Assembly (NCBI GenBank): GCA_030141605.1
Contig: JAQGDQ010000189.1
Coordinates: forward strand, 186,001 to 250,000
DNA: 64,000 nucleotides
Reading direction: 5' to 3'
From: Tubiluchus corallicola
Lineage: Eukaryota > Animalia > Priapulida
Part shown: positions 23,501 to 59,090 of the stretch, piece by piece
How the letters are laid out: each line of letters opens with the position of its first letter
Position numbering within the stretch: the first letter of the stretch is position 1
The notes under the pieces: model-generated
The model's input: the letters and a program-made list of their open reading frames with translations, nothing else
Databases searched by the model: none
What the model was told of the DNA's origin: nothing
Made by a program: the position numbers and the translations under genes

Positions 23501-26500
23501 GCCTTGCTGGATCTGGCTAGAGTGGAAAATGGGGTTCTCGGAAACGCTTTGGATGGAGGTAAATTAGTAATGAAGTTCTCTCTCATATTGGCACACTAGT
23601 GTGCAAGTGATGACTCGTCCTGCGATAATAAGTGACCTGCAAGTTACTAGAGTACGGTTCTCACTAGATCTGAAGTGACCTGCACGTTACTAGAGTACGG
23701 TTCTCACTAGATCTGATGCGACCTGCACGTTACTAGAGTACGGTTCTCACTAGATCTGATGTGACCTGCACGTTACTAGAGTACCGTTCTCACTAGATCT
23801 GATGTGACCTGCGCGTTACTAGAGTACGGTTCTCACTAGATCTGATGTGACCTGCACGTTACTAGAGTACGGTTCTCTCTAGATCTGATGCGACCTGCAC
23901 GTTACTAGAGTACGGTTCTCACTAGATCTGATGTGACCTGCATGTTACTAGAGTACGGTTATATTTCCTAGAGTTACTAGGAAATATTTGATGATGTCCT
24001 GTATTCGGAAAATCCGGAGGATTTTTTCCTAGCAGGATCTTACTTGAGAACAAGAAAAAATTAACTAGGCAAGGTTCTACCTAGCTGCTAAAACTGTTAC
24101 TATTACAATAACATGGGATGCGAGGCGTTGTCAAGTGTATGCAAATGCATTGTCTGGTACAGCTAACATTTAATCGTCAGTCGCTGGAACTGTGAAAAGG
24201 CTTATTGTACCGCGCTACGCGATAATTTGAGTCACGGGTTTCGAGTTACGCGATTTTCATTAAAGGGGAAAACGAAAGGGAAAATCCGTTCTTCAAGATC
24301 TGTTCGAGATACGCAAGAATTCGAGTTATGTCTCTTTGAGTGACACATACTAGGTAATTTACTGTTTAAGTTCCGGTGTTTTAACTGCTAGGCTGATTAT
24401 AATAAGACGAAGCATCACACACAAGAGCCTGTGAGCATCTGTGTTGTTATAGACAGGAAAGTTGTTTTCAAGGATTTGGCAGTCAAGCTCTCAGAGAACG
24501 TTCGCAAACGACAACTAATAATGTCTCTGTTCTTCAACTAAATTCCAAAGTTATGAAAAATATCTTTTCTCAATTTTATGAGTTTATAATACGGTTTATA
24601 ATAAGTTTAAAATTTTGGCATTTATAGACTTTTACGTTTTTCAGTGTCATTTTCAAGCCGTAGCAGGTACATTTCTGTATTTCTTAAATGATAATTAATA
24701 ATTAATTAACAGTTTTCATTCTTGGTGTCTTTTCCTTTAAATGTATAATCGCTCTGAAAACTTCCATTTACATGTCGTGAACGTTTTCTTAACAGTTTTT
24801 GTTCATTTGCAGCTCCGATCAATGAATCCGAAACTGAAAAAGACAAAAACGATAGTCAGTTTGAGAATGTAGAAGCCATGACAGGTACATTTCTTGTCTC
24901 ACGAAACAGTTTTGACTCGTTTTTGCTTCTGATTTCTCATTTTGCTTTGTGCAACCTATAACTTCTATGTTAATTTCATTATGTAATAGGGCTGAGACAG
25001 TTGGACTTTTTAACTGAAGCTACGAGTCCATGTTCACGTGATGCGTGATCTGTGATCCGTAATGCGTAATACGTATTGACTGTTTTCACGTGTCCGTAAA
25101 CATTGTGCGTATCAACAAAACTGACGGCACTCTTTCTGCCATTTTTGGTCGCTATTCGTGAAAATTGCAAGTAATAATTTTTTAGAAACCATGTTTCAAT
25201 CGAAATTCAGCTGTGACATTAGCTTGTTATTGTACTATTAGACGGAAGAGATACAGAAGAAAGCACAGGTTTTGGGTGCACACCATTTTGCAGAGTAGAG
25301 AACAATATGGCATGTACTATCATTAAAAACTGCAGTTAGATGTACAGCACATAACTACATGCTTATTCCACTTTTCACAAGTGTTGTTGTTTGTACGTCC
25401 TACGGTGACCAAAACTCACCTAACTAGAATTTTCAGAAAACTAAGCAGCGAAAATGTTCACCGGAAACTTGAAAACTCTCAATAATCACCTAGGCAAAGA
25501 CTATTTCCCATGTGTGTATTGCTGCGTGATGCGTGTTCGGATGATAGTGATCACGTTCAAATGAATATGGATCACACATGGAAACTCTTCTGCACAAACT
25601 GTTGTATACGCATTACAGATCACGCATTACGTACACATATAGTCGTACGTTAAGTGTCTAAACGTTATTAACTGCGATCCGTTAACCTTTCCCGATGACA
25701 TCATACCAAAATACCGAATACACATGACGAACTAATATGAAGAAATTGCTTATTTCTAACCCCATTATATAATCATAGAAATTCACTCAACTTGGTATTT
25801 CTTTAGTTTACGAATAAATTATGAGCCATTTTAAATCTTTGAAGAAGTTTTTGAACAACAAAATTCAATTTATGAAGAAATACCTGCGACGCAATTACCC
25901 CTCCGAATCATGATGTGTTTACTGACACGTCGTAGAATCACCACGCGTGCAAACTCGTAAGAATAAGCGGTGAGGTTCAAATCTAGCATGCGCCAGCGAG
26001 AATGTCCAACATGGCGGGCATCCTCGTAACACACGCGAGTGAAAAACTTTTTACAATTTACCATTTGGAGGCTTCTAAGGCAACCAGATTAATTGAAACA
26101 ATGTTGTTAATAGTACAGTTTTATGTAAGCGGGACTTTGCTAACTGCGTACGAAAACTCATCATTACAACTCGGAAAAGATACAAGGTTTCATTATTATG
26201 GATACGTAGAAAACTCGACTAAGTAACGATTAAACGGTTAGTGATTTTCTAAACTGTTAATCGTCTCAGCCTTATTATGTAATTTTAGAAATTTTTGTCG
26301 TATTTTGACTCTGTTTAACTTCTTTTTTGTTTGTAAAGAAGATGAGAAGAGGACGCTGTCAGAGGAAGTTGGCAAAGCGTTGGAAGAGAATGCGGAGGAA
26401 CTGGATCGATTGAAAGAACAGAAAGACGAAAAAGGTGAAGGTAGGTTTTGTGATGTTTTCATTTTGCTAAGCTGATCTAGTTATTTTTCCATTCTATTAA

Positions 26501-28812
26501 TAATTCCAAACTGCTTTTACCGGGTGGAAGTGAACAGCTTTAAACTTTCAGCAGACATGTTTACAGCAATAGTGCCTGTTTTTTACGCTATTTGCTTCAG
26601 CATGAAGATTGCTGGTATTGCTTGTGTTACAAGCATGGCAGCAGAAAAACTACTAAACGGAAGTGGTGCTACCAAACCGCTGGCGTAGCATTGTCTATTT
26701 TTATTGTCGTTTATTGGCGTAGCATTGTCGTTTCTTTTATTTTAGAATTCTGCCTGCCCAATGTCTACAATAGACGTGACGGGCGTATGATGATGATATG
26801 ATGATGACATAAAAACTACCATTCTTGTTACGGAAGTGGTGCTGACAAGCCACTGGCGTAGCAGTGTCTAGTTTTTTGCTGGATTACTGATGCGTTTACT
26901 GATATGACATAAAAACTAAGCAATATATTCATAAATTGCTGAAAATTTTTATAAATATCTTTCACATTCTTTAAAAAACTAAGGCTGTTCGGGTAATTAA
27001 ACTGTTGCGTATATTTTTTCTCTTACCTGCTCTAATTTTTTCCATATCGGTGTTTCACAGTCGGTAGTTTTACACATACAAAAACAGAAATTCAAACATT
27101 GCAAAGTCCGGCGAAAATTTCTGCTGGATCGGATCACAGGATCCATTATAATTTGCAGATATCCGGATCCGTTGCGTCCGTTAAAAAGCTTCGCAACTTT
27201 TGAAACCTTCTTACTCTGTTTGTATAATAACGAGTGTTTTTAACGCAGATGATACCAAGGAGAAGGAAGAGGAAGCTTCCGGCGTGAGCAAAAAAGAGGT
27301 TGACGAAGAAAAGAAAGAGGAGGAAAAAACTGAAAAAGAAGCGGCAGAGAAGACGAATGAAGTAGCCAAAGTAGTAGAGGAGGCTGAGGAAAAAGAAGAT
27401 GACGGCAACGAGGAAGGTGAAGATGAAGAAGCTGAAGATGAAGAGGAGGAGACAGCGGAAGGAGAGGGTGATGCCGCTGCCGATAGTAGTCAAAGCGAGG
27501 GAGAGGTGAACGAATTATTATGTTGTTTATGATGTACAATCAAACCACTTCTGGGTACCCGCCATCCGCCAGGCAAATTAATATACATACTTGTTCAATG
27601 GGGGAATACCTAGTGCTACTGACCTAGATATTATGCCAGCTGTACGAACCTGCTATATGCTCTGTTGAGTCACAGACGCTGACCAGACGTCACGTGTTGT
27701 ATAAAATAATGCATGTTTTCATGCTGTATGGTACATGTACATCGTACAGTCATCATAGGACGATATTGATAACTCTGACATTGTTATCAATGCTACGTTC
27801 AGTCACAGACACTGACCAGACGTCACGTGTTGTATAAAATAATGCATGTTTTCATGCTTTGATTGTTTTCAAGCTGTATGGTACATGTATGGTCATCATA
27901 GTGTGATAGTGACTCAGACATTGTTATCAATGCGCTATGCAGTCATAATTGCACTGAGACAAGACTTGGTATTTTTTTAGCCACGAGAAATTTCATATTT
28001 GCTTGTTTTCTAAGAATCATTCAAGCAAATCCCAGCAAGAAATTTGTAGTTACGACTTGACCTTTTTTTACATGTACATGATTAGTGGAGTGGTAGGCCT
28101 ACAGCTTACTGCGTGCATATATAGGTGGCAGGTTTTTTATCTAAACAAAATGATTGGATCAAAGATAATTGGTTTTTAGTGAGTAATTAATTCACAAATA
28201 ATTAATTTCATAAATTTCTTTTAATTCATTAACCGCTACAGTGAAAATTGAGAGCTCTAAACAGTTTACGCAATGTTCCCTCGCTACTTCGCGGTTCGTT
28301 TATTGCTGACTCGCTGTTTCGCGAGTTTTCAAAATTATTAATGTGAAATTTTTCGCGGTATTTTCGCTGTTTAGTGGGTTTTTGTGGTACTCCATCTATT
28401 TTTGCACATGCGTAGTTCGTATTGTACAGTAATGTATAAATTTGATAAATTTTGCATAAAAAAATCACAAAATGTATCAAAATATATTAAAAATATTAAT
28501 TCTAACATTAAAAGAATATTATAAATCGTAACAAATTACTATTTACAATAAATAGTGTATTTATTCGGCGTATGAATACACACCAAAAACAAAATGTAGT
28601 ACCTGCGCCCGCTTGAAATGCTACTTGCCGATGTGAGATTGTACACAACACACGATTGGTTGATTGTTGGAAAGCTTTTTAAAAGGTGCATGCACAGTAT
28701 GGGAAAAGTTATTTAGGGAATGGGAAATGGTTATGTATGAGAGTGCGGGGAGGGTTTATAAAAACCTAAAATAATGTATACCTACTAAAATAAGTATAGC
28801 GTCCCTACTTCG

Positions 28813-28846
<34 letters not shown>

Positions 28847-31800
28847 AACACTCGTTAAACCGGACTAATTGGGGGAGGGGGGTACGGTTTAGCTGATTGT
28901 CCGATTTATCCGATATGCCTATACATGGTCTATATTATACAGGAATAATCACCTTAATAAGGCCTATATACATTGCACTATATACTATACTGTATATTAC
29001 TTTAAAATAGTTAACCTGTGAGGATAAAGAAATTAGCGAGTGCTTTCGATGGGGTAAGCAAACTGAATTTTGGCGGGAATCGTAGCAGCCTGAGCGGCAC
29101 CGCGAGCCGCTTCGACCTGTCAATGGCTCGTGGTGAGTTGGTAGGCCGTGTTGTGTTTAGCGCTCCGGCTCGGTCGGAAATCGGTCAGTTTCCTTTACCA
29201 CAGATGACGTCCGTCTTATCCGATATCCGGGCTAACGGGGTCCGGTTTAACGAGGGTCGACTGTATATATCAAAACTGTGGTTCATTGTTTGGCTAAGTG
29301 CTAGAAATAATATTATACTAGCAAAGGCCCCGCAAAAGATTTTGCGTATAAATACACGTGTAATGAATAATACGCGAACATCCTACCTAGTCCTCATTTA
29401 TAACACTAAGCCCGTAACATCCTGCCTACTTACCTAACGCAAAGCCAGCAGCGTTTACTCCTGCCTACTGTATGTTGCAAAGCAGCTTTTTGCTGAATTA
29501 AAGTTATAGAGACAATGGATGACGTCAGCACAATGGAATGCGGTCAACACGGTTTTCTAAGCGAAAAATGTCGAAATTTGCGGAAAATAAAACACGTAAT
29601 TAACTCGTTGATACTCCTCTCGGTGGACCTGCCCTAACATATAACCCACATCATCGTGTAGCCCTGTCCTTCCTCTTTGTAAAGAGCTATAAATCTCCTC
29701 CCGAGAGTCCCACCGGGCGACGCTAGAACGTTTTTTCTGCAGGCTGTTTGGCCAAAATTTCGAAAAAATCGCGAGTTGGGTCCGGGAAAACGGCCGTTGC
29801 GGGACCCCGTGGCCCTCTCGCGAATTCTAAATCTGCCTACTACACCCACCGCTGAACGGGCTATCTATCCATACCCAGCACCCCCCTCGGCCCGTTCTCT
29901 ACATCTCAGCCGTATAACTTTTGCAAAAAACGGCCGAAAAAGGGCCATTTTTGGGGGGTTTTCGCCTCCCCCTCCTCCCGGTGGGCCCGATTCGAAAAAT
30001 AAACCATCAATGGCACGACACTAGATCGAGACCTTTCGTTTGATATATAGATCGCCGCAAATGGTGCCCTCGTCCGGGCTGTAGCCTCGAAAATTATATA
30101 TATATAAATTAAGCCCATACCAAGAATATTAATATAAGAGTAAGTATAGATTGCTTATGTAGGGCGCCGCTTCTTTCTTTTGACACCGAGTTGCTTGTTT
30201 ATATGCACTCAGCTTATCATTGTTATCTGCTGACAAGTAGAAAATTGCGCAGATTTTTAACAATTCCGACTCCTTTAGCAATAAATTCACAGGCGACTGC
30301 GATTCCACGGCTTGGAAGTTTCTATAATTACAGTTGTGTCCTTCTAGCGATGAAAAATATCTGAGTTTTCAATTTACCTTGCATAAATTTCGTTTTAAAT
30401 GAATAAAAAAATCTTTGTTTTATTTAGAATCCTGACGATGTTCCCCATCTGCAGTTGTCGTGGGAAATGTTGGAGTTGGCACGAACCATATTCTGTAGGA
30501 AGGAGGACGAGGAATCGAAGTTAAAGGTGGCTCAGGTGTTCCACAAGCTGGGTGAACTTGGCATGGAGCAAGGTTTGTACCGGGGTTTTACGATAATTTG
30601 CACAAATGCACATTTTAAAGTTGAGACGGGTAACCATTTTAGCCTTGTGTAAGAATTCTATATTCTTGACCTTTAATGAATCCAGCATTCATTAGACTTA
30701 CGCAGCAGTGATATAAATGCAGCACATTGGCATTATAGGACCTTTACAAGGTTGAGACGGTTAAACATTTAACTGACTGCTAATTGGTGTAATCGTTTAG
30801 AAAATCACTAATAGTTTAATCGTTGCTTAGCCAAGTTTTCATTAACCTTGCGTGCATTAAGACGTACAAGGTTGAGTGAAATTCTATGATTATGTAGCGG
30901 GGTTAATGTTGTGCAATTTCTTCCTATTAGTTCCTTATGTGTATTTGATATTTTAATAAATGTATGACGTCATCGGGAACAGTTAAACTTTTAAACTTTT
31001 AACCGACCGCAATTAATAACGTTTAAACACTTAATTAAAAAGCTTAATCGTCTCAGCTCTAACACGTTTACGAATTTCTGTCGATCCCCCAAGAGTTCAT
31101 CAATGACGTCAAATACTAAAGCACTCAGAAGACAACCGCGTTTTTCTTTAAAGTACTCACAAAAATTTGTTTTGTTATATAAATAGTAGCATCAGAAAAT
31201 ATTGCAAAATAAGAATTTCGTTTCTGTACTGTGTGGAACGCTGTTGGAACTGCAGCGCCCCCTATTTTCACTCGATGTTGTCTTTTTTCTTTAGTTCTTT
31301 CTCTATACTTATACATTATATAATCCTTAAGCTTAATGTCGGTAGCCATTTTCTACTTTGTGAAAAAACTACAAAAATCATTGTGTGAAACTGCACACTT
31401 CACAGTTCCAGCGATGCGGTGTTTGGCTGTCGTGTTCATGTGGCCATACGCACATGTCTGAGATAAGAAGCTGCACGCTAGGTTGTTGTCAGGGTTCCCA
31501 AGATCAGGGAAAATCCTTGAAAATACGGGCTATCCTGGAAAAGTCAGGGAAAAAGATGATTTGCTAAAAAGTCGGGGAAAATGATGAAAATAGGGCGAAA
31601 AGTCTGGGAAATTGGAAAGGGTTGCAAAATTAATCACCGTAAACCGATATTTTTCCAAACATATTTTTCAGCGATTCGTGTTCAAACAAAATTTTGTTCT
31701 TTCAGGCTCCCAGTTTTGATTTCTGTTCCAAAAATAATAATTGGATTAAGAAAGTTTATTTAATGTCATTAGTGTAATCTTTATAACACTACTGTAACTG

Positions 31801-34800
31801 TGCCGACACATTATGTATCAGTATATGTATGAATGTTTGAGCATGTATACTAGTAATGCAATTTCTGCTTATCTTGGTCATGGAAAATCAACATTTGGTC
31901 CGGGAAATTTATTTTAAAATTCTGTGGGAATCCTGTGTTATGCGAAAGGAAGGTCGTCTTTCTTTTTAACTAAATTTTCTTTTTATGTTTCTTTCGTTTT
32001 ACAAAATATTAAAACAATGGCTAAACGTCTTTTGAAGCATCACCCCCACTAATTTTAACTAAGAGCCACCATTGTTTCTGAGGCAATGTTGACTGTGCTG
32101 TGACAGTTTAGGTCGTAAACTGTTTGGTTTTCTTTGCAGAAACGTACGAACAAAGTATTAACGACTTCAACGAATGTTTGAAACTCCAGCAAGAGCATTT
32201 GGACGAAGATGATAGACTTATTGCGGAAACGTATTCTTTTACAGTAGAGTATTTCAATAATAACTGGTCAGCCAATGCCTTGTTCTTCCTGGAGTAAATG
32301 CAGACAGTTCTCTTGGGCTGTAGCAAGCAGGCGATCAATAAAATAGTGTGTACGTTCATGCAAGTGTACACCAGACTAAGCTACTCAATGGGCTAAGTTG
32401 CAATGTCGGGAAAGGGTGTGGCTGAAGTTAGTGTAGACTGTTGTAGACTGGTTCACTCTGGTGGTTGAGACAAAGAATATGAAATTGTGTTGAACTGTGG
32501 AGACTGAAGTTAGTGTAGACTGTACAAACTTTCTCTGTACCAAAGTGTCCTTGTACTAAACTTTCTCTGTACCAAACTTTCCTAGTACCAAACTTTCTCT
32601 CTACCAAACTTTCCTTGTAACAAATTTTCTCTGTACCTAACGTTCCTTGTACCAAACTAACTTTATCTGTACCTAACTTTTCTTGTACCAAAGTGTTTCT
32701 CTGTACCAAACATTCCTTGTACCACAGTGTTTCTCTGAACCGAACTTTCCTTGTAGCAAACTTTCTCTGTACCGAACTTTTCTTGTACCAAACTTTCTCT
32801 GTACTTAACCTTTCTTGTACCAAACTTTCTCTGTACCAAACTTGCCTTGTACCAAACTTTCTCAGAACGAGACTTTCCTAGTACCAAACTTTCTCTGTAT
32901 CAAACTTCTTGTACCAAACTTTCTCTGTACCATTCTTTGAAATCATCTCACAATACAAGTAAATATTCTGCCACCTCTTTAAGAAACTCCATGAAAATCC
33001 CCATATTAGAAGCCCACAGAGATTATCAAACTCTCCTGTTTCTCTATAAATATATCAACAATATTAATTCTCCTTTCAAAAACAATAAGCTCCCACTTCT
33101 TAAAAACCCCAGTATGAATAACAGAACACTAAATTTAAGAAACATTAGAACGAACAACCAATATGGAAAGAATTCCATTACTAAGCAAGCAATACAACTT
33201 TGGAATTCATTACCGACATCACTAAAACACAGCAGCTCTTTATCAATATTCAAGTCTAAATTAAAAAAAACATTTAATGACTCGTTTTGAATATCCGACA
33301 TACGAACACGATGATACTTACTCAAATCATAATTTTATTTTTCCTAGACCTTACTAAACTAGTTTATATTTTATTTTTTGAATTTCTAGATGCACTTATA
33401 GTTTAGCTTGCACCAGATGCATTTGCCCAGAACAGTGTATGTTTTTTATATGAACTAACACTGATTGTCTGTCTTTTAATATGATGGTCAATGTTTTAAA
33501 ATGGCAAATAAAGATTTTACTACTACTACTGTACCAAACTTTCCTAGTCCCAAACTTTCTCTGTACCTAACTTTTCTTGTATCAAACTTTCTCTGTACCA
33601 AACTTTCTCTGTACCTAACTGTCCTTGTATCAAACTTTTTCTGTACCTAACTTACCTAGTACTGAACTTTCTTTTTACCAAACTTGTTCTGTACAATTTT
33701 TACCTTGTACTATATTTACTTGTACCAAAAGTATTTGTCAAAGCTTCACTAACATTGTAATTACCAGTTCCATTACTCTGTTACCAAATTTTCCCAGTAC
33801 GACAATTTTTCTATATCAAAAATTCCTAATAGCAAATTTTCCAGGTTAAAAATTTCCTCTTACCAAACTTTTTCTTAGTTTTTTATTATAAATGTCGCAA
33901 CCTATGGACTGGGTATATTTTTCTTGTACATATACAATTATTGCTAGCTCCATAATAATTGCATTTTCATTTTGAGTACAACTACATTATCAAGCCTTAA
34001 AAATATGTAATGGCCACCAATAAATAAAAAAATATAAACAAAATGAACCTAAAAGACTGTATCAACAGTCCATGTTTAGAATTAAATATACAGCAACAAT
34101 TTCTCCAAGACGCCATGCTTCCTTATTTACATCTGATAACAGTGCTTAGGCAAACTGCGTCTTATTTACCAGGATAAGTTTTCTGTTTGTTTGCATCACT
34201 TTGCTGTGATTAAGGTACAAAGGTCAGTCCTAATGTCAAGATAAACAATATGCACAAATTTTACTATCACAGCTTGTGGAATTATTTGCTAGAACATCAT
34301 ACTATCTCGTACAAGTTTTCGTGCTTGAAAATAAAATAGAGCATAAGACCATTTTGTATGCTGTTTGTATGATATTTTTGATACACAATATATATTAGCT
34401 ACTTCGGTTTTTCTGCTACCTGACTAAAATATTACAGTGCGAAGTGCTTTTGATTGTTGATATGGAAAAAATCGAGGAACTTATTTACAGTGTGTCAGAC
34501 GCCAATCAAAAATTGGAACTCGAGACGTTACTAACTGGTTACCAATTTGCTCATCTTGGTGCAGACAGAACACAACGGCTCAACAACCTGCTACATGCTG
34601 CAACGTACTTTAACATGCCTGAGCATGTTGATGAACTTCTCAACAGAGGAGCAGAAATAGAAAGTCTATCACCAATCACTAAAAAACGTTCAGAGGGAGG
34701 AACCCCCCTTGGAGTTGCATGTTGTTTGGGACATACCTCTCTTGTTGAGCAACTGATTAAACGGGGTGCTGACATAAACTGTCTTTCTAGAAGCAATGGA

Positions 34801-37800
34801 TGGTCGCCTTTAACAATAGCAGCTTCACAGGGACATACAGAAATTTGTGAAATGTTGTTGTTTCATGGAGCAGAAGTTGATGGCTTCCCAGAAAAGTATA
34901 AAATACGACCTATACAGCATGCATCACAGGAAGGCCACACTGAAATAGTGAAGCTGTTAATTAAATATGGCGCCAAAATTGATGAAGATCCTTACATTTC
35001 AGTTGATGGTCATCCGCCCCTCCATGCTGCAGCATTTCAAGGACAGTTTGGAACCCTTTTTCTGCTTCTTAAAGGTGCAAATGTCTTCTATGCAGATATA
35101 AACGGTAATATCGCTCTGCATTTGGCAGCAAGGCAAGGAAATGTTCATTGTGCAGCACTTCTGATTTTTGCGGGCTCTGACATTCTGGCAGAAAATAATG
35201 ATGGTGAGACCCCACTTTCCATAGCATGTATGAAAGGTAGACTGGATGTTCTTGAACTAACATATAAAAATATACTAGAGAGGTATTCGCACAAAGTAGT
35301 AAGGCAGATAGTAAATGAACGTTACACTGGAGGAAGTTTAATTCATCTGGCTTGTCAAACTGCTCACTTGTCAGCTCAAAGTGTAGATGTTGTTAAATAC
35401 CTCACTGATGTAGGTGTTCACACCGAAACGTTAAATGAATCTCATGAAACGGCTTATGACATGTGCATCCGACGAGCTTACGAAAAGGCATTGAACCAAA
35501 ATTACAAACAAATTGCAGGACTTTTTCTTTCTTATCGGTACTTTCAAATGTGGCAAGAAGTGTCTTCAGAGCTTTCTGTCACAAAGGATGATGAAACAGT
35601 GTCAAAAAACATTTGTGGAATGACTCCACAGGATTTGGTTTCCATGCCTGGACTAGGAACAATTTCAAATGTGGAAGAATTTGACTATATTAGAACCATT
35701 ATAAGGAAATTGTTAGGTGCTGTTAGCAGAATTCTTTACGAAACTCATCGCATAAGATTTGTGCCCATACTTGTTGGCAGTTCGGCTTGTGGAGTAAAGA
35801 TTGGCCAGCCAGATGAGTTTGATTTTTTTGTTGTGGTACAATATGATAAGCTGCACGGAGATTTCACAGCAGATTTACGAAAATTAAAGGAGACATTTTC
35901 CCAATCCCTGTGCAGAGCCGTGGCAACTGGTTTGCAAGAAGAGGAATTTAAAGAAAAAATTGTGCCAAACAGCTTTCCACATGTAGTGGAATGGAATAAA
36001 GTCTGTACATGTTTGAAATTATGTGTTCTGTTGCCAAACAAAAAAATAGCAATCTCTGTAGATGTGACACCATGTGCTGAAGAAGAGGGAGTACCAAAGA
36101 ATGCCAATGATAAATGGCCAGAGGATGTCAACAGTTATCACTACGTGCTCAAACCAGTTGAATCAAAAACAAAAGTTGAACCCGCATTTGCTGTTGCTGA
36201 ATGTGGATTTATAGAGAACTTAGACAACAACCATAAGATGGTGTTGATCCTCATAAAGGTGCTAGTAAAGCCTGTCCTGTATTCTTGCAACAAAGAAATA
36301 CATTTATATCCCAGTCATCTTGCTTCAACATTCCACTCCTGTTTGGTCAGTGCAGATGTCAACTTGCCAGAATTATACAGAGGAATAAAGTATCAACCAG
36401 ATAAGGTCATTGACTCATATATGATAAAAGTGGCCTTCTTGCATGAAGTGGTTACCACTATAGATGGCTGGGGCACAGAAAACTTGAAAGCTTGAGCTGT
36501 CTCTATATTCCAGTACATTGGACATTGTTGCCGAGAAGGCACAATGTTTCACCCACTTCTAAATGATGTCAATATCTTAGAAGATCTGAAACATAAAGAA
36601 ATGAGTGGCATTCCATTGTTAAAATTGGCAGAAGACGCAGCACGTGCTATAGAAAACAAATTAGCTGATGGCACCATACCATCAAATGAAGGTCTAATGG
36701 AACCAAAGTTTGAAAAGTACCATGCTATGCTAAAAACACATGCACTAAATCAGGCGGAAGTAATATGGGTCAAGGCGGCAATTGAGAGATTTGTATTTAA
36801 GATCCGTTTGGGATTGGATAGAACAAAGTGATAAGAAACATCAAAGTGCATCTTAGAAATGCATTAGTCATTTGGCTAAATCTAGTCATCAGAAATCCAA
36901 TGTTTTAATAAGTATTACACAAAATCCAAGCAAATATTTGTATTTGGGAACTCAATGTACATTATCACTTGTACGAAATCGACGTATGCAAAAAATTTCA
37001 ACTGTCCAGTCACAACACTCTGATATACTTTGGCCTCAAGTAGCAGAAAAGTCATAGGTCTTATAAGACGTATTTTCAGTGGCGCGGTCCTGAAAGAGTT
37101 AATCTAGGTTTCAAATGTAGCCTTGTTCACATGGGTTAATTGCCACTGATGGGTCTGGAAGTGCTTCCTTTTCAATTGTGGTGTTCATGGTCTCCATTTG
37201 AATGAATCCTTAGCCTCTTGACAGACATTATAATATCGGTTTAGCTTACAACTACGACAGAAAGTACGAAGACGCCGTCAAGTATTTTGAAAATGCCGTG
37301 AGGATCATCGAGGGAAAAATCTGTAAGTTTTTCTTTCTCGTAGCGAATCATGTTGCTTTGTGCTACAATTGTTAAATTTATGAATTCATTTTGTGCCATA
37401 ATTCTTGAATTATTAGTTCATGATTTATGAATTTGCACTGGTGACTTTAATGATATCACGATCAAAGTTGTTAAACACATTATTGTACATTGTTAGTCAA
37501 CATGTATGCTCACATCGCACATTGGTGGACAAAAACGGGGAGACGTCAGTCTGCGTTTTCCGGTCCGTATTTACTGACACTAAACTAATACACTAGGCGC
37601 TGTGTATTAGGGTCGTGGTAATGTAGAATCAATTGCCTAATCGTCTCAAAAACGTCTAGTACGCGCTTCTCCTACACTAGGCGCTACGTATCAGACTTGT
37701 GGTAATGTAGAATCAATCCCCTAATCGTCTCAAAAACGTCTAGTACGCGCTTCTCCTACACTAGGCGCTACGCATCAGACTTGTGGTAATGTAGAATCAA

Positions 37801-39033
37801 TCCCCTAATCGTCTCAAAAACGTCTAGTACGCGCTTCTCCTATGCAAAAGGATATAGAAACTATCAGCAATTGACTTAAATAACTTCACATAATTGACTC
37901 TAATTAAGCCAGTTAAACACGCTGACATACAAGCTACACACGTGTCGTTACACGCTGCTTGGTTACATTGATGCAATGATGTAAACAAAGTGACGTCACA
38001 CCAACTAGCAGTCAGCTCGCGAAACAGCAGACTGTGTCCGTAGTACGCGGGACTTTTTAACGGTCCATGTTTTGTTCGATTTTTCCGATATCCGTAAAAG
38101 CGACGTCCGGCAAACCGAGATATGAGTCTAATACAAAATAACACAGTTGTTTGTTTAGGGATTCTATTATTTTACTGCACTTTCTACTGTGGCTGGACTG
38201 GACACTTAATTTATAAACTTTTGTCCATTTGTAATTTATTGTTAATCATTAGGATGTAATCTTTCAAATTTGTCTTTTTTACTTCCAGCAAAACTTCGTG
38301 ATGCTTTAGAGAAAACAGATGAGACGGGTGAGTATAGAAAGTTGAAAGGTTTTGTCAAACATCCCCAGGCTTTAAAGGAAAAGACAAGTCATTTCTCATT
38401 TGTCAATTATAGAGCATAAACCTAAAATAAACTACCTCTGAATAGAAATTTTCAGGTGTGATGGTTGCCGTCATTCGCTTAAAAATTTTGATGTAACTGG
38501 GAGACTTCGTGAATTTCCGTAAGCGCATCGTGGCTTTCCGTAAGCGCACCGTGGCTTTCCGTAAGTGCGTGCTGCTTAAACTAATCCAAACTTCTGCAGC
38601 TTACCTAATGTTCATGCAAAAATATCACACAATTAGCAATCTGTTTTTTTTTAATCATCCCTTATTTTTCGTCAGCCAATGAATGAATGACGTCATTGGA
38701 AGAAGAATGGGTATTGAAAATAGAAGCACCCAAGCATGAAGTGATCCCGACTAGAAAGTGATTTTACTAATTACAGGAGGCGCTTGTCGCAGTTTCATTA
38801 CTAAATGTGTCAAACACTTTTGGAGAATATTGAAATCATCCTAATTTATCAGAAGGCCTGGCTTTTCTTTTAAGATCTTAGGCTCGTCGTCAATCCATTA
38901 TTCTGTGATCGATCGTATGACTACTTTCACTTAATATTCTAGTAGCTATGTCTGTTGTAATGACTTTGAGTGATCTTTTTTTAATGTGCTCTTAGTACAT
39001 GCAGATTAGAAAGTCATTAAAGGAAAACACCAC

Positions 39034-39071
<38 letters not shown>

Positions 39072-42000
39072 TTCTTTATTTGTCGTTAAAATGGCTCACT
39101 CATTATAATAAAATTGAGTAATCCTCAGCGTAATGTTAAAATAACAACACTGTTCAAGACAAATGTGTCCAGTGCAGACTAAAAAAACTAAAGTGCAAAA
39201 TTAAGGGCTAATTATATACAATAAATGAACATATTTACAAACACAATATTAAAATATTTATTACAAAAATTATTTTTATTATCCAAACAATATTACAAAA
39301 ATACATTAAATTTTACATGACATATTTTACACTATATATACATTTAACATGACACAATTAACAGAAACATGCTTTACATTACATAAATTCTAGTATAAAC
39401 TCTAAATAATATTAAAGACTAGTGGTTAAATAGTTTGAGGAACAGTCGATTGAAAATGAGTAGTGAACTTTTTTATAGAACTCACAGAAGAGAAGAAAGA
39501 GGACATCAACAAGGAGCTAGGAGAATTGCGAGACGTTTTACCCGACATCCGAGGAAAGATTGACGACGCGAAGGAGAGCAAAGCGAATGTTCATTTGGTA
39601 CAAGAATCTGGTGATCAGGTATCTTTGCTTGTTTTCATTGAGGTGTTCTCTTGATCGGCTACATACATTAGTTGACTTTTGTATTGTTTTTCATCTTTGT
39701 CTTCTTCTTTCTCTTAACCTGTTTTCATATCTTTGCAAAGATAACTTTTGTTGTAAAATTAACGTTGTATTTATTTAATGAATTGGTGATGGGTTTTGGT
39801 TTGAAGTCATCTAGTCTGTCATTCATTTCCCGTACATACTTGATCTGAATTGTCGAACATCTAACGAACAAAACTTTGTCAATCATATTAAAGAATGATG
39901 CAGTAAAGAAAACAACACCCAAAAAACACACAAACAAACACCCAAAAAACACACAAACACCACCCAAAAAACACACAAACAAACACCCAAAAAACACACA
40001 AACACCACCCAAAAAACACACAAACACCACCCAAAAAACACACAAACATATAGGGCAGTGTGCCTCAAGAAAGTACAGCTATTGCATGTAATTTGTGCAG
40101 TTCTTGGGCAGTGTGCCTCAAGAAAGTACAGCTATTGCATGTAATTTGTGCAGTTCTTGGGCAGTGTGCCTCAAGAAAGTACAGCTATTGCATGTAATTT
40201 GTGCAGTTATAGGGCAGTGTGCCTCAAGAAAGTACAGCTATTGCATGTAATTTGTGCAGTTCTTGGGCAGTGTGCCTCAAGAAAGTACAGCTATTGCATG
40301 TAATTTGTGCAGTTCTTGGGCAGTGTGCCTCAAGAAAGTACAGCTATTGCATGTAATTTGTACAGTTATTGGGCAGTGTGTCTCAAGAAAGTACAGCTAT
40401 TGCACGTAATTTGTACAGTTATTGGGCAGTGTGTCTCAAGAAAGTGCAGCTATTGCATGTAATTTGTACAGTTATTGGGCAGTGTGTCTCAAGAAAGTAC
40501 AGCTATTGCATGTAATTTGTACAGTTATTGGGCAGTGTGTCTCAAGAAAGTACAGCTATTGCACGTAATTTGTACAGTTATTGGGCAGTGTGTCTCAAGA
40601 AAGTGCAGCTATTGCATGTAATTTGTGCAGTTATTGGGCAGTGTGCCTCAAGAAAGTACAGCTATTGCATGTAATTTGTGCAGTTATTGGGCAGTGTGCC
40701 TCAAGAAAGTACAGCTATTGCATGTAATTTGTGCAGTTATTGGGCAGTGTGCCTCAAGAAAGTACAGCTATTGCATGTAATTTGTACAGTTATTGGGCAG
40801 TGTGTCTCAAGAAAGTACAGCTATTGCATGTAATTTGTGCAGTTCTTGGGCAGTGTGCCTCAAGAAAGTACAGCTATTGCATGTAATTTGTACAGTTATT
40901 GGGCAGTGTGTCTCAAGAAAGTACAGCTATTGCATGTAATTTGTGCAGTTATTGGGCAGTGTGCCTCAAGAAAGTACAGCTATTGCATGTAATTTGTGCA
41001 GTTATTGGGCAGTGTGCCTCAAGAAAGTACAGCTATTGCATGTAATTTGTACAGTTATTGGGCAGTGTGCCTCAAGAAAGTACAGCTATTGCATGTAATT
41101 TGTACAGTTATTGGGCAGTGTGTCTCAAGAAAGTACAGCTATTGCATGTAATTTGTACAGTTATTGGGCAGTGTGCCTCAAGAAAGTACAGCTATTGCAT
41201 GTAATTTGTACAGTTATTGGGCAGTGTGTCTCAAGAAAGTACAGCTATTGCATGTAATTTGTACAGTTATTGGGCAGTGTGTCTCAAGAAAGTACAGCTA
41301 TTGCATGTAATTTGTGCAGTTCTTGGGCAGTGTGCCTCAAGAAAGTACAGCTATTGCATGTAATTTGTACAGTTATTGGGCAGTGTGTCTCAAGAAAGTA
41401 CAGCTATTGCATGTAATTTGTGCAGTTATTGGGCAGTGTGCCTCAAGAAAGTACAGCTATTGCATGTAATTTGTGCAGTTATTGGGCAGTGTGCCTCAAG
41501 AAAGTACAGCTATTGCATGTAATTTGTACAGTTATTGGGCAGTGTGCCTCAAGAAAGTACAGCTATTGCATGTAATTTGTGCAGTTATTGGGCAGTGTGC
41601 CTCAAGAAAGTACAGCTATTGCATGTAATTTGTACAGTTATTGGGCAGTGTGCCTCAAGAAAGTACAGCTATTGCATGTAATTTGTACAGTTATTGGGCA
41701 GTGTGCCTCAGAAAGTACAGCTATTGCATGTAATTTGTGCAGTTATTGGGCAGTGTGTCTCAGAAAGTACAGCTATTGCATGTAATTTGTACAGTTATTG
41801 GGCAGTGTGCCTCAAGAAAGTACAGCTATTGCATGTAATTTGTACAGTTATTGGGCAGTGTGTCTCAAGAAAGTACAGCTATTGCATGTAATTTGCTATT
41901 GGGCAGTGTGCAGAAAGTACAGCTATTGCATGTAATTTGTACAGTTATTGGGCAGTGTGCCTCAAGAAAGTACAGCTATTGCATGTAATTTGTGCAGTTA

Positions 42001-45000
42001 TTGGGCAGTGTGCCTCAAGAAAGTACAGCTATTGCATGTAATTTGTACAGTTATTGGGCAGTGTGTCTCAAGAAAGTACAGCTATTGCATGTAATTTGTA
42101 CAGTTATTGGGCAGTGTGTCTCAAGAAAGTGCAGCTATTGCATGTAATTTGTACAGTTATTGGGCAGTGTGTCTCAAGAAAGTGCAGCTATTGCATGTAA
42201 TTTGTACAGTTATTGGGCAGTGTGTCTCAAGAAAGTACAGCTATTGCATGTAATTTGTGCAGTTATTGAGCAGTGTGTCTGAGGAAAGTACACTTATTAT
42301 GCAGTGTATGCAGGGCAGTCTTGACCAGTGTAAACAGCGGCTTCGAGAATGCACTCAGACCCTTAGTGTGCTTTCAACAACCCTTTTTAGCGTAAATTGT
42401 GTCAAGCATTTTTTACTTCCTTAAGAGTCGACTATTAGCCATTAATCAACCCGCTATCTTTCTTCCTTAGAGTCGACTATTAGCTATGAATCAATCCGCT
42501 ATCTTTCTTCCTTAGAGTCGACTATTAGCTATTAATCAACCCGCTATCTTTCTTCCTTAAGAGTCGACTATTAGCTATTAATCAACCCGCTATCTTTCTT
42601 CCTTAGAGTCGACTATTAGCTATTAATCAACCCGCTATCTTTCTTCCTTAAGAGTCGACTATTAGCCATTAATCAACCCGCTATCTTTCTTCCTTAGAGT
42701 CGACTATTAGCTATCAATCAACCCGCTATCTTTCTCTGCTTTTTTGCAGGCTGCTGCTTCATCTGCCTTCCAAAAGACGTCAAATGAGCCAGAAAAAACC
42801 GTCACAAGTATAACACATCTGGTAAGAAAAAAGGTGAGCATTTTTCTTTCCAGCTTTTAAGATCTCGGTTTTTAGTTCACTGTTCGTTGCCGTTTATTAC
42901 CGATAAGAGGGGAATAGCCGACCGATCGTGGTATATTGACTGAACTTGGGTAATGCCAGATTTGGTTAGTGGAGAGGGAGCCACTAGGAAAATTCCTCAA
43001 CTTGCTGCTCTGAATTCATTAAGTTGAGAGAGGAAGTGGCTGGTTCTAAAAGGATCATGCGGTATAATTTTTTACATTTTGGTCCTGCCATATAGTGATG
43101 GACGATTAATCGAGATTAGAACCATACATAAATCGACATAATCGGCTGTTGAACAGTAATTCAGTTAAATAAGATTAATCGACAACAGAATATATGTGTT
43201 ACACGCTGACTGAAAAACAGTGTTATGCACAAATAAACGGAATTCTTGCATTTTTTCTTCATTTTTCTCACCTTACATAATGTGCACAATTGCAAACCTA
43301 TTCGCTTTCACGTGACGCGTGCAGTTGACATAGTAATAGAGTAGCTAATGAATGTACTTGTTTATAAAAAATAGTTTGCAAGAATGAAAATAGTAGACAA
43401 CGACGAAAACCATGAAGAAGTTTATAAGCTGTATTTCGGTGCTGCAACGTATGGAAAATGAAACACTAGGAAATTACCGCAAAAGATTAATCGCGATGTC
43501 GAATTAGAAGAACAAGATTGTAATCGAATTATAAAATTACAAAATTGTCCATCACTGCAGTTTTCTTTGTAAGTTGTCTCAGTGACACTCAGTTTTGGAA
43601 CTGAGTAGTAAACAGTACAGCTAGTCATCGACTTGTGACCGCAATACCTTCCGGCAAATTGGTCGCAAGAGAAATTGGATGCAAGTCAGGCACGTATATG
43701 AAACATGTTCACGCCCCCACCCCCGCGTGTAAGACGTTGTGTATGGCCCAGTATGGCGGCGCTCACAATGAATTTATCAAAAGATTTAACAATTTAAATT
43801 AATTTGTTTGAAAAATAGAAGGAAATATGAATTATAATTAGCTTTGCGCATACACTCATATTTCGGTTTGCTGGACAAAGGCGGGGAGATGTTGGTCCGA
43901 ATTTGCCAGTTGTCCGTATTTTCCGTTACTAAGGCGATGTAGTAGGTGCCGTGTGTTAAACTCACGGTAATGTAGAATCAATCACCTCATTGTCTCTTTG
44001 ACGTCTAGTACGTGCCGCTCCTATGCAAAAGTGTATAAAAACTGTCAGAAATTGATTCGAATAACTCTGCATAATTGACCCTAAAGCACTTAAACACGTT
44101 GATTGAACCGCTAGACACGCTGACATAAAAGCTACACGCATGTCGTTACATGCTGTTTGGATGTAAACAAAGTGCCGACCCGCCAAATAAAGGTCAGCTT
44201 GTGAAGTAACGGACAGTGCCTGAATTTTTTTCGAATTTCCGATATCTGTAAAAGCGAGGTCCGGCAAACCGAGATGTACGTGTAATTAAGTTAAGTTATG
44301 GTCGGGTCGTAAAGTGGAACAGATGTAACTCATGTATGTCTTAACTACCTGAATTAGCTACTTCGTGTTCGTGCTACTTAGAAGCCCTGAAATATGATTT
44401 TCTCCTGCAACTGTAAAATTAGTGGACATGTTTTTTTCATCAAAGTCCAGAATTCTATTCAACCATTGTTTTTTCATAGAGAAAGCCTGAAGATGAAGAA
44501 CCGATCGGTGGCGACACCTGCAAAAAGGCAAAACAAGAGGATAGCAATGGTGAACCATCAATAGTTAACGGAACAAATGGTTGTGTGGATGAACCTATGA
44601 ATGAAGCGGAGCAGGTATTCATTTGTGACGTTTGAATTTTGAATGAAACGGAGCAGGTATTCATTTGTGACGTTTGAATTTTGAGTGAAGCGGAGCAGGT
44701 ATTCATTTGTGACGTTTGAATTTTGAATGAAGCGGAGCAGGTATTCATTTGCGATGTTTGTATTTTGAATGAAACGGAGCAGGTATTCTTTTGTGACGTT
44801 TGAATTTTGAATGAAGCGGAGCAGGTATTCATTTGTGACGTTTGATTTTTGAATGAAACAGAGCGGGTATTCATTTGTGATGTTTGAATTTTGAATGAAG
44901 CGGAGCAGGTATTCATTTGCGACGTTTGTATTTTGAATGAAACGGAGCAGGTATTCTTTTGTGACGTTTGAATTTTGAATGAAACGGAGCAGGTATTCAT

Positions 45001-48630: not shown

Positions 48631-49236
48631 AGTAAAATAAGTAAATAGCAGTGAAATAATGTGGGACATTTAGGCATGATTTCGTTTCAATTTTTGTTAC
48701 TACAGCTTAAGTACCTTTGCATTATGCATTTTTAAAACAACGGAGGGTGTAGTAAGTTACATTTTTCAGGAAAAATATTCTGTTAATGTTATTACGTAGT
48801 ATATGACTTGTCAGTAAATTGGATTAGTGTTTGTAGGCTGAGGCAAATCGTGTCACCCCAGTATTTATTATAGTTGCATCTGTCTTCTCAGTGCTTCATG
48901 TCGTATGTGCTGTTTTGTTATTTTTGTTTTATTTATTTTTTGAAATTCGGACAAATAAGGACTAGGAAATATTCTATTCTGTTCAAATGGATCTAACAAA
49001 ATATTGGCTAATTTTACAACAAGTAGTAATAAAGTGTAACATACAAACGACTCTTACAAGACCTATTCTGAATGGTGCCGTCCTGAAGGAGTTGGTCTTT
49101 AATTATTTTGACTGATGCTTTAGTTAATGTCTTCCATTTATAAAATAATGATTTAAAATTTATTTCAGTTTTTTAGCTCATTAAGTGGGATAGTTCCATT
49201 TGCCAGCAACAAACTCTAAAGCAGACTCATAAAAAA

Positions 49237-50913
49237 ATGTCGAGATATCTGCAAAGCATTCCCGTGCAGACCTGTGCGAGGCAGCTCCATGGTAGGACGT
49301 CCTCAATATCCATATATTCAATGTTGGGCAGTTTCACTAGCTGTGCTGCTGACAATCATGCATTTCAGGGGTATGACTTCGAAATGGCTCCTCCTTTCGT
49401 CTGCAAGTTTTCGAGAACAGATCCGCACGTTTTTGTACTTGCCAACGAGGAAGGTACAGTGCACCTGTACGACAGCAACCTTCCAGGTGAAGCTAGTTTA
49501 ATAAGGACGTGGTCTGCTCATTCGAATGCAGTGTTCGATGTATCATGGATGCCGGGCGAATCAAAGCTTGTCACAGCATCAGGAGATCAGAAATGCATCT
49601 TATGGGATGTTACCACTAATGCACTTCTGGCCACATTGAAAGGTCACGTGTGCAGCGTAAAATCTGTAGATTTTTGTCGCGACGACAGAAATGTTTTGGC
49701 AACCGGATCGAGAGACGGAAACGTCATGATCTGGGATCTGCGAGTGAATAACAGCGGTGGATTTCATCGAGCCATGAAAGTCATTGCGAATGCACACGTG
49801 ACCCAGGAACGTGATGTCAGATCTGCACAGAACTCTAAAAAACGAAAACGTACTGCCGAATTTAAACCACATAGCGTCACCTCGGTCGCTTTTCAAAACG
49901 ACCACATGTTGTACTCGTCCGGCGCAATTGATGCAACGATAAAAGGCTGGGACTTGCGGACAGGTTACTACACCCACTTTCCAAAGTACCTGTTTCCTTA
50001 TTGTGGTAGAGGTGATCGCAGACGTGGTTTCTCACACATCATGTTCAATTCCGGATATACGAAACTTGTCGCTAACTGCATGGATAACGTGATCTATGTT
50101 TACGACTGCATCACTTTTTCGAGTGAACCCATCGCAAGGTTTGCCGGCCATTTGAACTCTTCGTTTTACGTGAAGTCCGCATTATCTCCGGAAGATCAAT
50201 TTCTGGTAACCGGATCCGGAGACGGCAATGCGTACATTTATGATTTCTCCAGACCTCGTGCAGTTCCATACGTTTTACAAGGTCATGAAGCGGAAGTGAC
50301 TGGCGTCACCTGGTGTCCAACTGACATCACGAAAATGGTTACATGTGGAGATGACACAACGATGATGTGGCGTCTGTCTCGCCAGCCGCATTCGCACCTG
50401 GACCTTGCAGGAACGGCAAAGAAGAGCGAAATTCCTTCAGGACGAATCAGTTGGCAACCTCTAAACACCCACACTGAGCTGGAGAAAACACCTAAGAAAC
50501 CGGTTCCGAAAACTAGAGCAGCATCTGCCGTTTGTTCAAGTCCGTTAAAAGAGAACAGTGGCAACATTGCAAAAGCGAGTGAATGTGCCAAATTCGGCGA
50601 CAAAGTGTGTGAATACTCGCAATCTCCAACGGCCAATTTACCAAATTCAGTTCTAGATGGTATGGGAGCACCACACGCTCAAGCGCATGTCAGTGAGAAA
50701 AAATCGGCTGCACAAAACTGGTTGAGAACTCTAAGCTTGAAAAAGCAAAAGGAGAACGGTTGTGAGAAGCGAAGAGGAAACGTGACGCCCAAATCGATCA
50801 TTCCGTCACCAAGCTTCTCAAAGACGAAGCGAAGGAGACGTTCTACTACAAATTGCAAAACACTGTTATCCTATTTTAATGCTGACCAAAACTCAAAACC
50901 TAAAACAAGCTAG
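49237..50913 (+). CDS. DTL: Denticleless/Cdt2 WD40 CRL4 substrate receptor, copy 1 (558 aa, intronless CDS)
   Basis: PPFVCKFS, LANEEG, AHSNAVFDVSW, TASGDQ, GHVCSVKSV, TGSRDGNVMIWDLR, HSVTSV, IKGWDLR, GHLNSSFYVK, GHEAEVT, SPTANLPNSVLDG, NWL, and C-terminal PIP-like KTLLSYF. Confidence 0.95.
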   Translation: MSRYLQSIPVQTCARQLHGRTSSISIYSMLGSFTSCAADNHAFQGYDFEMAPPFVCKFSRTDPHVFVLANEEGTVHLYDSNLPGEASLIRTWSAHSNAVFDVSWMPGESKLVTASGDQKCILWDVTTNALLATLKGHVCSVKSVDFCRDDRNVLATGSRDGNVMIWDLRVNNSGGFHRAMKVIANAHVTQERDVRSAQNSKKRKRTAEFKPHSVTSVAFQNDHMLYSSGAIDATIKGWDLRTGYYTHFPKYLFPYCGRGDRRRGFSHIMFNSGYTKLVANCMDNVIYVYDCITFSSEPIARFAGHLNSSFYVKSALSPEDQFLVTGSGDGNAYIYDFSRPRAVPYVLQGHEAEVTGVTWCPTDITKMVTCGDDTTMMWRLSRQPHSHLDLAGTAKKSEIPSGRISWQPLNTHTELEKTPKKPVPKTRAASAVCSSPLKENSGNIAKASECAKFGDKVCEYSQSPTANLPNSVLDGMGAPHAQAHVSEKKSAAQNWLRTLSLKKQKENGCEKRRGNVTPKSIIPSPSFSKTKRRRRSTTNCKTLLSYFNADQNSKPKTS

Positions 50914-52527
50914 TGAGCATTTTATAACATTTCAAAAACTATTTATTTTCTTAAAACTCGTTTGCGTGACTCACTCAGTGTTTTCACGGTCTTGTTGTGT
51001 GTATGGCCAGTTGCTGTAGATCAGAGGTTAAGTGTACCACAGCAATGCATCTTAAGTACAATCGTCACATGAGTTGTGGGTATAGCAAAGCCTTCTGCCG
51101 CATTAGTTCGGAAACTAACGTAACATGGAGTTTACTTAGTTATACATTAGTCTGTAGGTAAAGTGATTTACTAGCAGGATGTTGCTTAGCAGTAAGAAAA
51201 AATGAACTAAGTTAGGTTCTAGCTAGCTGTTAAAACTGTTATTATTAAAATAGGATGGGCTGCGATCCGTTATCAAGTGTACAGAAATGGGTTGTCTGGT
51301 ACACTTAACCTTTTCCCGATCATCGTCAATCGCTGGAACTGTGAAAATACTTACTGTGCAGGTTTTAAAAGTGCAAAGTAACTGTTTAGGTTTGTTTTAC
51401 TATTTTGTGAAAAGAGACGTGGATCAAAACGAATAATCTTGCTCAGAACTTTTCCTCTATAGGACGTTCACTTATCCCACTTTGGCTTTAAAATTACTCA
51501 ATATCCCTCTACTGTGACTTTTAATTTAGATTATAAATTAAGGTTTATCTTCATTGATACAAAATTTAAAGCAAAAAACACAAAAGTCCAACAGTCATTT
51601 GATGACGAATTTATTAATTAGGGTACAAGTTACACAAATTTTATTTGTGTTAATCATTTGTGCACTTAGCCAAGTCGCATCCTATTTACATTTCGTTTCT
51701 ATTTTTACGAATTCAGTTATAAAAAATCTTATCCAATTTCTATAGCCACTGTATAAGTTTCCACACGTACATAGGTTTTAACAATAATTAGGAACACAAG
51801 ATGTTCTACTTTTTTCAAAGTTACGTTTCATTAAGTTTTGTTTCTTCATTTTCTCAGTTTACCTAAATATACAGCATCCGTTTATAGTTCACAGACAAAT
51901 ATACACCATCTTGAGGCAAGTTAAATAAAAACTTACGCACCACATAGCTTGACCATCATAGCAATAATTTATAAACGCGTATAATACAGGTCTCTATAAT
52001 ACAAACAATGATAACATTCACTACAGTGAGCATGTACATAATAAACATGTAATCAGTCACATTTGTTTTCTAAGCAAAAAAACGTTGAAATAAATGAAAA
52101 AGAAACACGAGGAAATAAAGGAGAATAAATAAGATTTAGCAAATGTTCATTGTGTGACATACTAACAGAACAAATCGACTCTCGTTTGCAGGAGGTACTG
52201 TGAAAATTTACTAACCAAATACAAAAGAATTAATGAAACTATTAAAAAATCGCCAGGGAATCAGTCACAATTAACCCCCCGCCTCCCAAAATGAAAGGTC
52301 AGTACAACTTCAGTTTATCAGCAAAATTTTCTAAAACTGAATGAATTTCTAAAAATGAAAGACGATTGATGCAAAAATCGCACTAGATAATAATGGTCGG
52401 CCACAAAATTCCAGCAGGACGCAGCAGTTGGTCTACTATTGCAAAAGCCAAAAAAGCGAGGGTTAACAATGAACGTGGTACGCTGTCTGCTACGTCAAAT
52501 AAAATAACGATAATAATTAAATTAATC

Positions 52528-58673: not shown

Positions 58674-59090
58674 ATATGAGTATATTATAACTGTTAAAAC
58701 CGTTGTTATTAAAATAGGATGCGATGCGAGACGTTATCAAGTGTACACAAATGCGTTGTGCAGTTAACCTTTGACGTTTTAACGATCATGGTCAATTGCT
58801 GGAACTGTGAAAAGACTTACTGTGCAGGTTTTAAAGTCCAAGTCGTTTTTAAGTGCAAAGTAACCGTTTAGGTTTGTTTTACTTTTTTACTATTTTGTGC
58901 TAAGAGATGTGGATCAAAACGAATAATAAACGAGAAAACATCAGATACAAACGACTGTATTAAAGTCTCAATTGATTATTATTATTATCACTAGTGGACC
59001 TCACACCCGAACTTTGGACCGAATCGGTTTAACTAACCTTGTGTCGTAATTTTTCGATTTTGCATGGTCTTCTCGCGGACGCGTTCTCAA

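Follow-up and report, generated by a model that had tools for sequence, protein, structure and literature searches.

A likely dead, stop-interrupted ankyrin-cGLR gene of a multicopy family, likely transposon-carried, in a NASP intron of Tubiluchus corallicola

Is the gene at 34462-36831 of a 64,000-nucleotide stretch from the priapulid Tubiluchus corallicola (assembly GCA_030141605.1, contig JAQGDQ010000189.1, positions 186,001 to 250,000 of the forward strand; hereafter the window), in which ankyrin repeats are joined to a Mab21/cGAS domain, a working and undescribed innate immune sensor, as the original prediction had proposed? The reading that we consider fairly probable is that 34462-36831 is one member of a multicopy family of genes for ankyrin-fused cGAS-like receptors (cGLRs), broken by a nonsense codon and likely dead, that it lies in an intron of the histone-chaperone gene NASP and that it was likely carried by a transposon. 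The ankyrin-cGLR fusion is an already catalogued design, to which 34462-36831 adds a member.

Results

A predicted cGAS-like catalytic domain behind an ankyrin array

The reading frame (Table 1) is intronless and contains one internal TGA only, and over its full length its product can be aligned to P0002, an intact relative of 800 amino acids, at 50% identity. Pfam Ank matched seven stretches of the product (E 8e-41), and a structure model of the full-length protein has 8-9 helix pairs across residues 33-341, so that the original count of about eight repeats was a fair one. The C-terminal part of this model had a predicted local distance difference test score (pLDDT) <50 and Foldseek matched the model to ankyrin proteins only (DARPins, ankyrins); therefore, the catalytic domain was modelled alone. 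The resulting model (10-row alignment, stop read as X; pLDDT 83, predicted template modelling score 0.83) has the oyster Cv-cGLR1 (8gjw) as its best Foldseek match (E 8e-11), with cGAS also matched, and VIA-align aligned 292 of its residues to mouse cGAS (4o6a) with Z 23.4 and a root mean square deviation of 3.1. Moreover, a profile made from five family members matched cGAS (E 3e-13) in both the nucleotidyltransferase core and the helix bundle. In total, profile search and predicted structure establish the predicted cGAS fold of the catalytic domain and bear out the fold originally proposed; the structural mismatch named beforehand as grounds for giving it up did not occur.

The Pfam profiles suggested as a check gave a mixed outcome. 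Ank matched as described above, Mab-21 was weak (E 0.062 for the isolated domain; no match at E<=0.01 for the stop-truncated product), and Mab-21_C lay exactly at the cut-off (24.1 bits; match spanning residues 648-714), and did so only with the stop read through as X. A phmmer search of the catalytic domain against PDB sequences gave no match at E<=1.

The motifs LVGS (437-440), DEFD (451-454), SVDVTP (with D534) and SYMIK (652-656) are all present, the last two as proposed, and the G, S, E, D, D and the S-Y-x-x-K helix do not vary across the 10 aligned rows. The first two had been given as GS-x(9)-DEFD; the motif stands, but the spacing that we counted is x10, equal to the GS-x11-E-F-D of human cGAS. 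The vertebrate-type zinc thumb is absent, which confirms an earlier observation: conserved Glu and conserved Lys are 20 residues apart versus 32 in human cGAS, and this stretch, 12 residues shorter, is missing the H/CC/C cluster of human cGAS. By the active-site motif used for cGLRs in PMC9980059, h[QT]GS-x8-20-[DE]h[DE]h-x50-90-h[DE]h, the query reads LVGS-x11-EFDF with the third Asp 80 residues on, and has Val at the Q/T position, as has the catalogued Priapulus protein XP_014668761. The two-part cGAS match of the profile, taken with Mab-21_C at the cut-off, agrees with a further cGLR criterion of that study, and the Foldseek and VIA-align values of the predicted model agree with another, structural homology to cGLR/CD-NTase enzymes.

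Ankyrin-cGLRs form a known and widespread design

The first four relatives found were all ankyrin-Mab21 proteins of 723-804 amino acids; one of them was named, XP_014668761. Li et al. (PMC9980059) list this protein in their Table S1 and record its ankyrins in Table S2. Their text and figure legends, like Table S2, refer to ankyrin-fused cGLRs by name, and the paper suggests protein-protein and protein-ligand roles for them. Searched with a profile, 1.84 billion representatives yielded 1,002 matches at E<=0.001; among the best 150 of these, 110 of 144 new relatives have ankyrins by an ankyrin profile made here, and Pfam confirmed ankyrins in 30 of the first 40 new relatives. The proteins with a WNKVC motif, 12 including the query, form one clade (SH-aLRT 99) in a quick-search tree of 67 of 70 rows rooted at the midpoint; all 12 have ankyrins, and 11 match the GS..[DE]h[DE] pattern. 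Thus, with the fusion published, a clade member catalogued and ankyrins in most of these new relatives, the proposal that this is an undescribed system fails. In a literature search of titles and abstract openings we found no functional study of an ankyrin-cGLR fusion; a term search on cGLR with ankyrin gave no occurrence in PMC10732462 and PMC10855445, and neither XP_014668761 nor a second Priapulus protein, XP_014666123, was found in the screen table of PMC9980059.

The two Priapulus proteins share with the query the N-terminal ankyrins, the cGLR domain, LVGS, DEFD, the third Asp and WNKVC, at 27-28% identity over the catalytic domain. In contrast to them, the reading frame of 34462-36831 is cut by a premature stop, its N-lobe hairpin is shorter, it belongs to a recent multicopy family, and it lies in a NASP intron with a probable transposon end adjoining. 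Vertebrate cGAS and Cv-cGLR1 share the fold over 292 residues (Z 22-23, predicted model), the triad and its spacing, and the S-Y-x-x-K helix; the query differs from both by its low identity (13-18%), the lack of a zinc thumb, an acidic rather than basic domain, the ankyrin N-terminus and an extra C-terminal helix, unaligned past model position 356. Viral contigs held no relative of the catalytic domain. One metagenome contig (L001:1530-2930) has a distant stand-alone cGLR-like open reading frame (ORF; 466-amino-acid open stretch, triad intact, 31% identity) that lies outside the WNKVC clade motif; it was the one such relative among the metagenome contigs.

A member of a multicopy family inside a NASP intron

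The flanking exons belong to NASP: SHNi-TPR scored above the Pfam cut-off, and the exons at 30431 and 39481 matched human NASP chains with E 2e-7 and 2e-4, respectively. The multi-exon NASP gene extends over ~26345-39619 (+), with exons checked at 30430-30573, 32141-32230, 37225-37322 and 39480-39619. This setting, the multicopy family and the repeat terminus described below all went unmentioned in the original prediction.

In sequencing runs, 332-1,346 contigs were placed per run, most of them 80-99% alike, and in run X1 the depth summed over the gene was 2,000-6,500, whereas contigs that match the window exactly gave 191-201. These values suggest some ten to thirty gene copies or alleles, although depth summed over contigs is not the same as a true copy number. 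About 560 bp upstream of the gene are also common to the copies, up to the point where the major copy group departs (Table 1), and the end of the minisatellite flank further upstream is common to at least one other copy or allele (X1 record 6, X3 record 17). This minisatellite, with a 16-bp unit, lies at 32520-33729 and is interrupted at ~32933-33530 by a piece ending in TAC repeats, which we take to be the 3' end of a long interspersed nuclear element (LINE) and which had no Pfam match.

Behind the gene lies the internally deleted right arm of an abundant repeat ending in TTAA. The summed depth was 113,409 in the arm and 193, from one contig, past 37102, and behind this position 35 and 24 contigs have unlike flanks (agreement 0.4). 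Diverged contigs cover 36689-36880 (X4, 16 differences) and 36813-37042 (X3, 13 differences), and thus link the gene end, the 3' flank and the repeat arm; the contigs are too short for any one of them to take in gene, terminus and flank. A second piece of the repeat family lies near the left end of the intron; its score was reached by none of 500 shuffles and none of 483 random window pieces. An extension of the repeat homology to the stop codon of the gene was borderline (23 of 500 shuffles and 12 of 494 window pieces had an equal score), and an extension to the intron start was unsupported (140 of 500 shuffles). Further pieces lie at 59926-60396, 49052-49093 and 13943; those at 59926-60396 and 13943-14025 are longer ones, and the latter, in opposite orientation, may be the other terminus.

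The termini of piggyBac follow a YY..RR rule, and a TTAA with an AG-3' end presumably fits piggyBac. A Kolobok element was rejected, since its termini are 5'-RR..YY-3' (PMC9587614) and here AG precedes TTAA; the end, a TTAA with varied flanks, is not of this type. The composite-like KolobokP transposons described in the same paper resemble the locus in the terminal TTAA and in directly oriented repeat pieces flanking an internal region; the locus differs in its RR-3' rather than YY-3' terminus, and a KolobokP-type structure is unsupported, as the presumed direct repeat is not flanked by a short inverted repeat. Viral contigs gave no match to the terminus motif.

Carriage by a transposon or duplication with an old neighbour

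On this evidence we lean, if only slightly, towards a TTAA-ended DNA transposon as the carrier of the gene, which would have brought a copy into the NASP intron. For carriage speak the non-coding flanks common to the copies, the shared sequence that stops at TTAA and the lack of a poly(A) signal behind the gene. A processed retrocopy was rejected: we found neither AATAAA nor ATTAAA in 36830-37230, and no A tail.

Several observations weigh against carriage. The repeat is abundant, with five pieces in 64 kb. Neither a left terminal repeat nor a left TTAA was found in the intron: the best score of the terminal-repeat search was 31.5-35 versus 36 for the 95th percentile of shuffled sequence. However, the left side of the intron is taken up by the minisatellite and the LINE piece, and the other copies are visible for only 30 letters upstream of 33897; in the major copy group these letters held no terminus and had no match in the window. 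No transposase was found among ten window ORFs scanned. Moreover, the unlike sequences that follow 37102 may come from gene-free copies of the repeat, and the adjacency of gene and repeat could be an old chance, later copied by segmental duplication.

Growth of the family by tandem or segmental duplication, with the transposon end copied along as an old neighbour and not as the vehicle, is a serious possibility, although we hold it to be less than probable. It would account for the missing left terminus and transposase, for the abundance of the repeat and for the minisatellite flank found with another copy or allele; the DTL genes nearby are themselves tandem duplicates, an end of the same repeat included, and extreme cGLR expansions have been published (PMC9980059). 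Against duplication stand the end of the shared sequence at TTAA, with one-contig depth beyond, the second repeat piece at the left end of the intron and the improbability of a tandem array inside the intron of a housekeeping gene.

Carriage by a transposon would have a partial precedent in the multicopy Pack-TIRs of animals, e.g. Ssk-FB4 (Tan et al., PMC8277862), in which a host gene and its flanks are likewise joined to the arm of a terminal-repeat DNA transposon in several copies. These are known but rare, with four in the reference-genome set of that paper, the main text of which does not mention piggyBac. The locus differs from Ssk-FB4 in that only one terminus was found, in that the repeat is TTAA-ended and in that an entire 2.4-kb immune receptor would be carried; in our literature search, no cGLR was reported to be carried by a transposon. 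If true, carriage would explain the expansion of a cGLR family, and jumping DNA may spread ankyrin-cGLRs. A bolder version, which we regard as doubtful, is that piggyBac-type cargo amplification produced at least ten scattered, diverging ankyrin-cGLR copies whose ankyrins sense different protein ligands, in effect a movable set of cyclic-dinucleotide synthases that respond to proteins, the intronic copy being a casualty.

The premature stop and the state of this copy

The stop cuts off 111 residues. Its position corresponds to model residue 291 (356 residues align to cGAS) and lies within the Mab-21_C match, and the product as written has an incomplete helix bundle in which model residues 291-356 are lost. 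This copy is a broken member of the cGLRs; the family itself is unaffected. The title and reasoning of the original prediction had omitted the stop, and the TGA was mentioned in its proposed test alone.

All seven Sequence Read Archive contigs covering 36493 (four runs, two samples) have CGA at this codon. In the relatives, the closest included, the stop column holds Arg (P0002, P0004 and P0005 among them) or Ile, never Cys, in six of six clade rows. A hidden intron over the stop was rejected, as none of 43 GT..AG pairs is in frame with a strong donor and removes the TGA.

Among coding differences to the other copies, 22 of 29 are non-synonymous (31 coding rows of 416 rows, two dropped beside gaps; 376 further rows lie outside the count). 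Neutral evolution leads one to expect a non-synonymous share of 0.72-0.78 (p 0.84), and an omega of 0.3 a share of ~0.45 (p 0.001). The share fits neutral decay and not purifying selection; together with the stop and the CGA of other copies, it makes 34462-36831 probably a pseudogene.

Two points weigh against this. The same ratio arises under diversifying selection, and T at 36493 occurs in no contig, so that this assembly is the one source for the stop. It is conceivable, but in our view unlikely, that the gene is functional here, the TGA having arisen in assembly or marking a null allele that segregates in an otherwise intact receptor under diversifying selection. Such a gene would fit with a single lesion in 789 codons, an intact triad and the high replacement share that is also typical of fast-evolving immune genes. 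However, contigs drop rare variants, and the letters of the window at 36420, 36444, 36461 and 36467 are missing from the contigs as well; the haplotype of the window is therefore absent there and the absence of T is not specific to the stop. Moreover, CGA to TGA is a common CpG transition.

As a probably dead copy of a known design, 34462-36831 would make a poor reagent. The intact P0002 or a CGA-bearing paralogue would be a suitable representative of the clade.

Trigger and mechanism of the intact copies

In the cGLR family, the triad binds metal and two nucleoside triphosphates (NTPs) are joined to a cyclic dinucleotide that is read by STING. By analogy with the family, the predicted cGAS-fold domain of intact copies would use E452, D454 and D534 with metal to join two NTPs, and the cyclic dinucleotide would go to STING. 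The conserved linker helix would hold the ankyrin array, which would bind a protein ligand and gate the enzyme.

The isoelectric point (pI) of the catalytic domain is 5.99, and ranges from 5.57 to 8.43 across all 12 clade members; the basic DNA-binding surface of vertebrate-type cGAS is thus lacking. According to PMC9980059, DNA- and RNA-sensing cGLRs have a pI >8.5; our computed pI of 8.3-8.4 for XP_014668761 is near the 8.2 published there. The same source describes acidic auto-active cGLRs, e.g. Pd-cGLR, which are like the query in their low pI and for which a non-nucleic-acid ligand is proposed; the query family has, in addition, ankyrin repeats that may be its ligand-binding module. The acidic domains of the clade lend modest support to the originally suggested non-nucleic-acid, protein trigger, i.e. 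to intact copies being triggered by something other than plain DNA or RNA. Given the acidic domain, the constant ankyrin fusion and the conserved linker helix, a protein ligand acting through the ankyrins would be the likeliest trigger, with perhaps an even chance of being correct. Ankyrin-cGLRs being common, the acidic, always-ankyrin-fused clade of 12 provides candidates for cGLRs triggered by non-nucleic-acid ligands.

The N-lobe hairpin is shortened. It has 21 residues versus 28 and 38-51 in clade relatives, and ~17-30 residues that five of six clade relatives have are missing, which raises some doubt about activity in this sub-family. In the alignment to human cGAS, Ala stands in place of the serines of the RLSFS strand, which have a role in NTP binding. 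Together with shrimp Mab21 proteins reported in PMC12928593 to act through IKK-epsilon, these features would suit a family of non-catalytic or non-cyclising scaffolds, in which the Mab21 fold and the ankyrins signal by protein contacts and no second messenger is made. We regard such a scaffold as improbable, because the active-site residues and the S-Y-x-x-K helix are unvaried in all 10 rows and the GS..[DE]h[DE] pattern is kept throughout the clade but for one member.

As for the copy in the window, read-through of the TGA (as selenocysteine or a leaky stop) to give a full protein is rejected as very improbable: the 111 residues past the stop are still open and homologous, but other copies have an Arg codon, the relatives lack Cys in this column and an Rfam scan of 32000-38000 gave no family at E<=1, the selenocysteine insertion sequence included.

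Table 1. Coordinates of the ankyrin-cGLR copy, its parts and its surroundings in the window
Feature	Position	Strand	Basis
Host intron, GT..AG, 4,994 bp, NASP histone-chaperone gene, same strand	32231..37224	+	Flanking exons join in frame, no stop
Second piece of TTAA-ended repeat family, near left end of intron, same orientation	32312..32416		83% to 60110-60195
5' non-coding flank common to other copies; major copy group diverges upstream of 33897	33897..34461	+	Same loose end at 33897 in 4/4 runs
Ankyrin-cGLR reading frame in one exon, 789 codons, interrupted at codon 678	34462..36831	+	ORF from ATG 34462 to TGA 36831
Ankyrin array, ~8 repeats, residues ~40-340	34579..35481	+	Pfam Ank, model helix pairs, Foldseek
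Linker helix, residues ~341-370, clade-conserved between ankyrins and enzyme	35482..35571	+	Alignments; model helix 346-370
Predicted cGAS/cGLR catalytic domain, residues 388-743, stop read as X	35623..36690	+	Model, Foldseek, VIA-align
G439-S440 loop and catalytic E452, D454	35776..35823	+	Invariant in 10/10 rows of domain alignment
Third catalytic acid D534 (SVDVTP)	36061..36063	+	Invariant in 10/10 alignment rows
Premature TGA, codon 678, helical lobe; CGA (Arg) in other copies	36493..36495	+	7/7 contigs, 4 runs, read C at 36493
Right arm of abundant repeat, ...GAAAGAG/TTAA (TTAA 37099-37102), internally deleted, putative piggyBac-like terminus	36953..37102		82-84% matches to 59926-60014, 60340-60396

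Other features of the window

Two intronless copies of DTL/Cdt2 (denticleless), 92% alike, lie at 49177-50913 and 60536-62116 (+) within tandem duplicated units (~48706-51591 and ~59086-62631), and each begins 80-140 bp behind an end of the TTAA-family repeat. An inverted pair of another repeat (25650-26259 and 30790-31034), with arms 80-89% complementary, surrounds three NASP exons. Inverted copies of a GC-richer repeat of ~520-700 bp, 79-86% alike, lie at 14030-14548 and 29429-30136, and one of them interrupts the TTAA-family piece at 13943. Finally, a 53-bp satellite occupies 40049-42292 with 42.5 copies and 96% matches.

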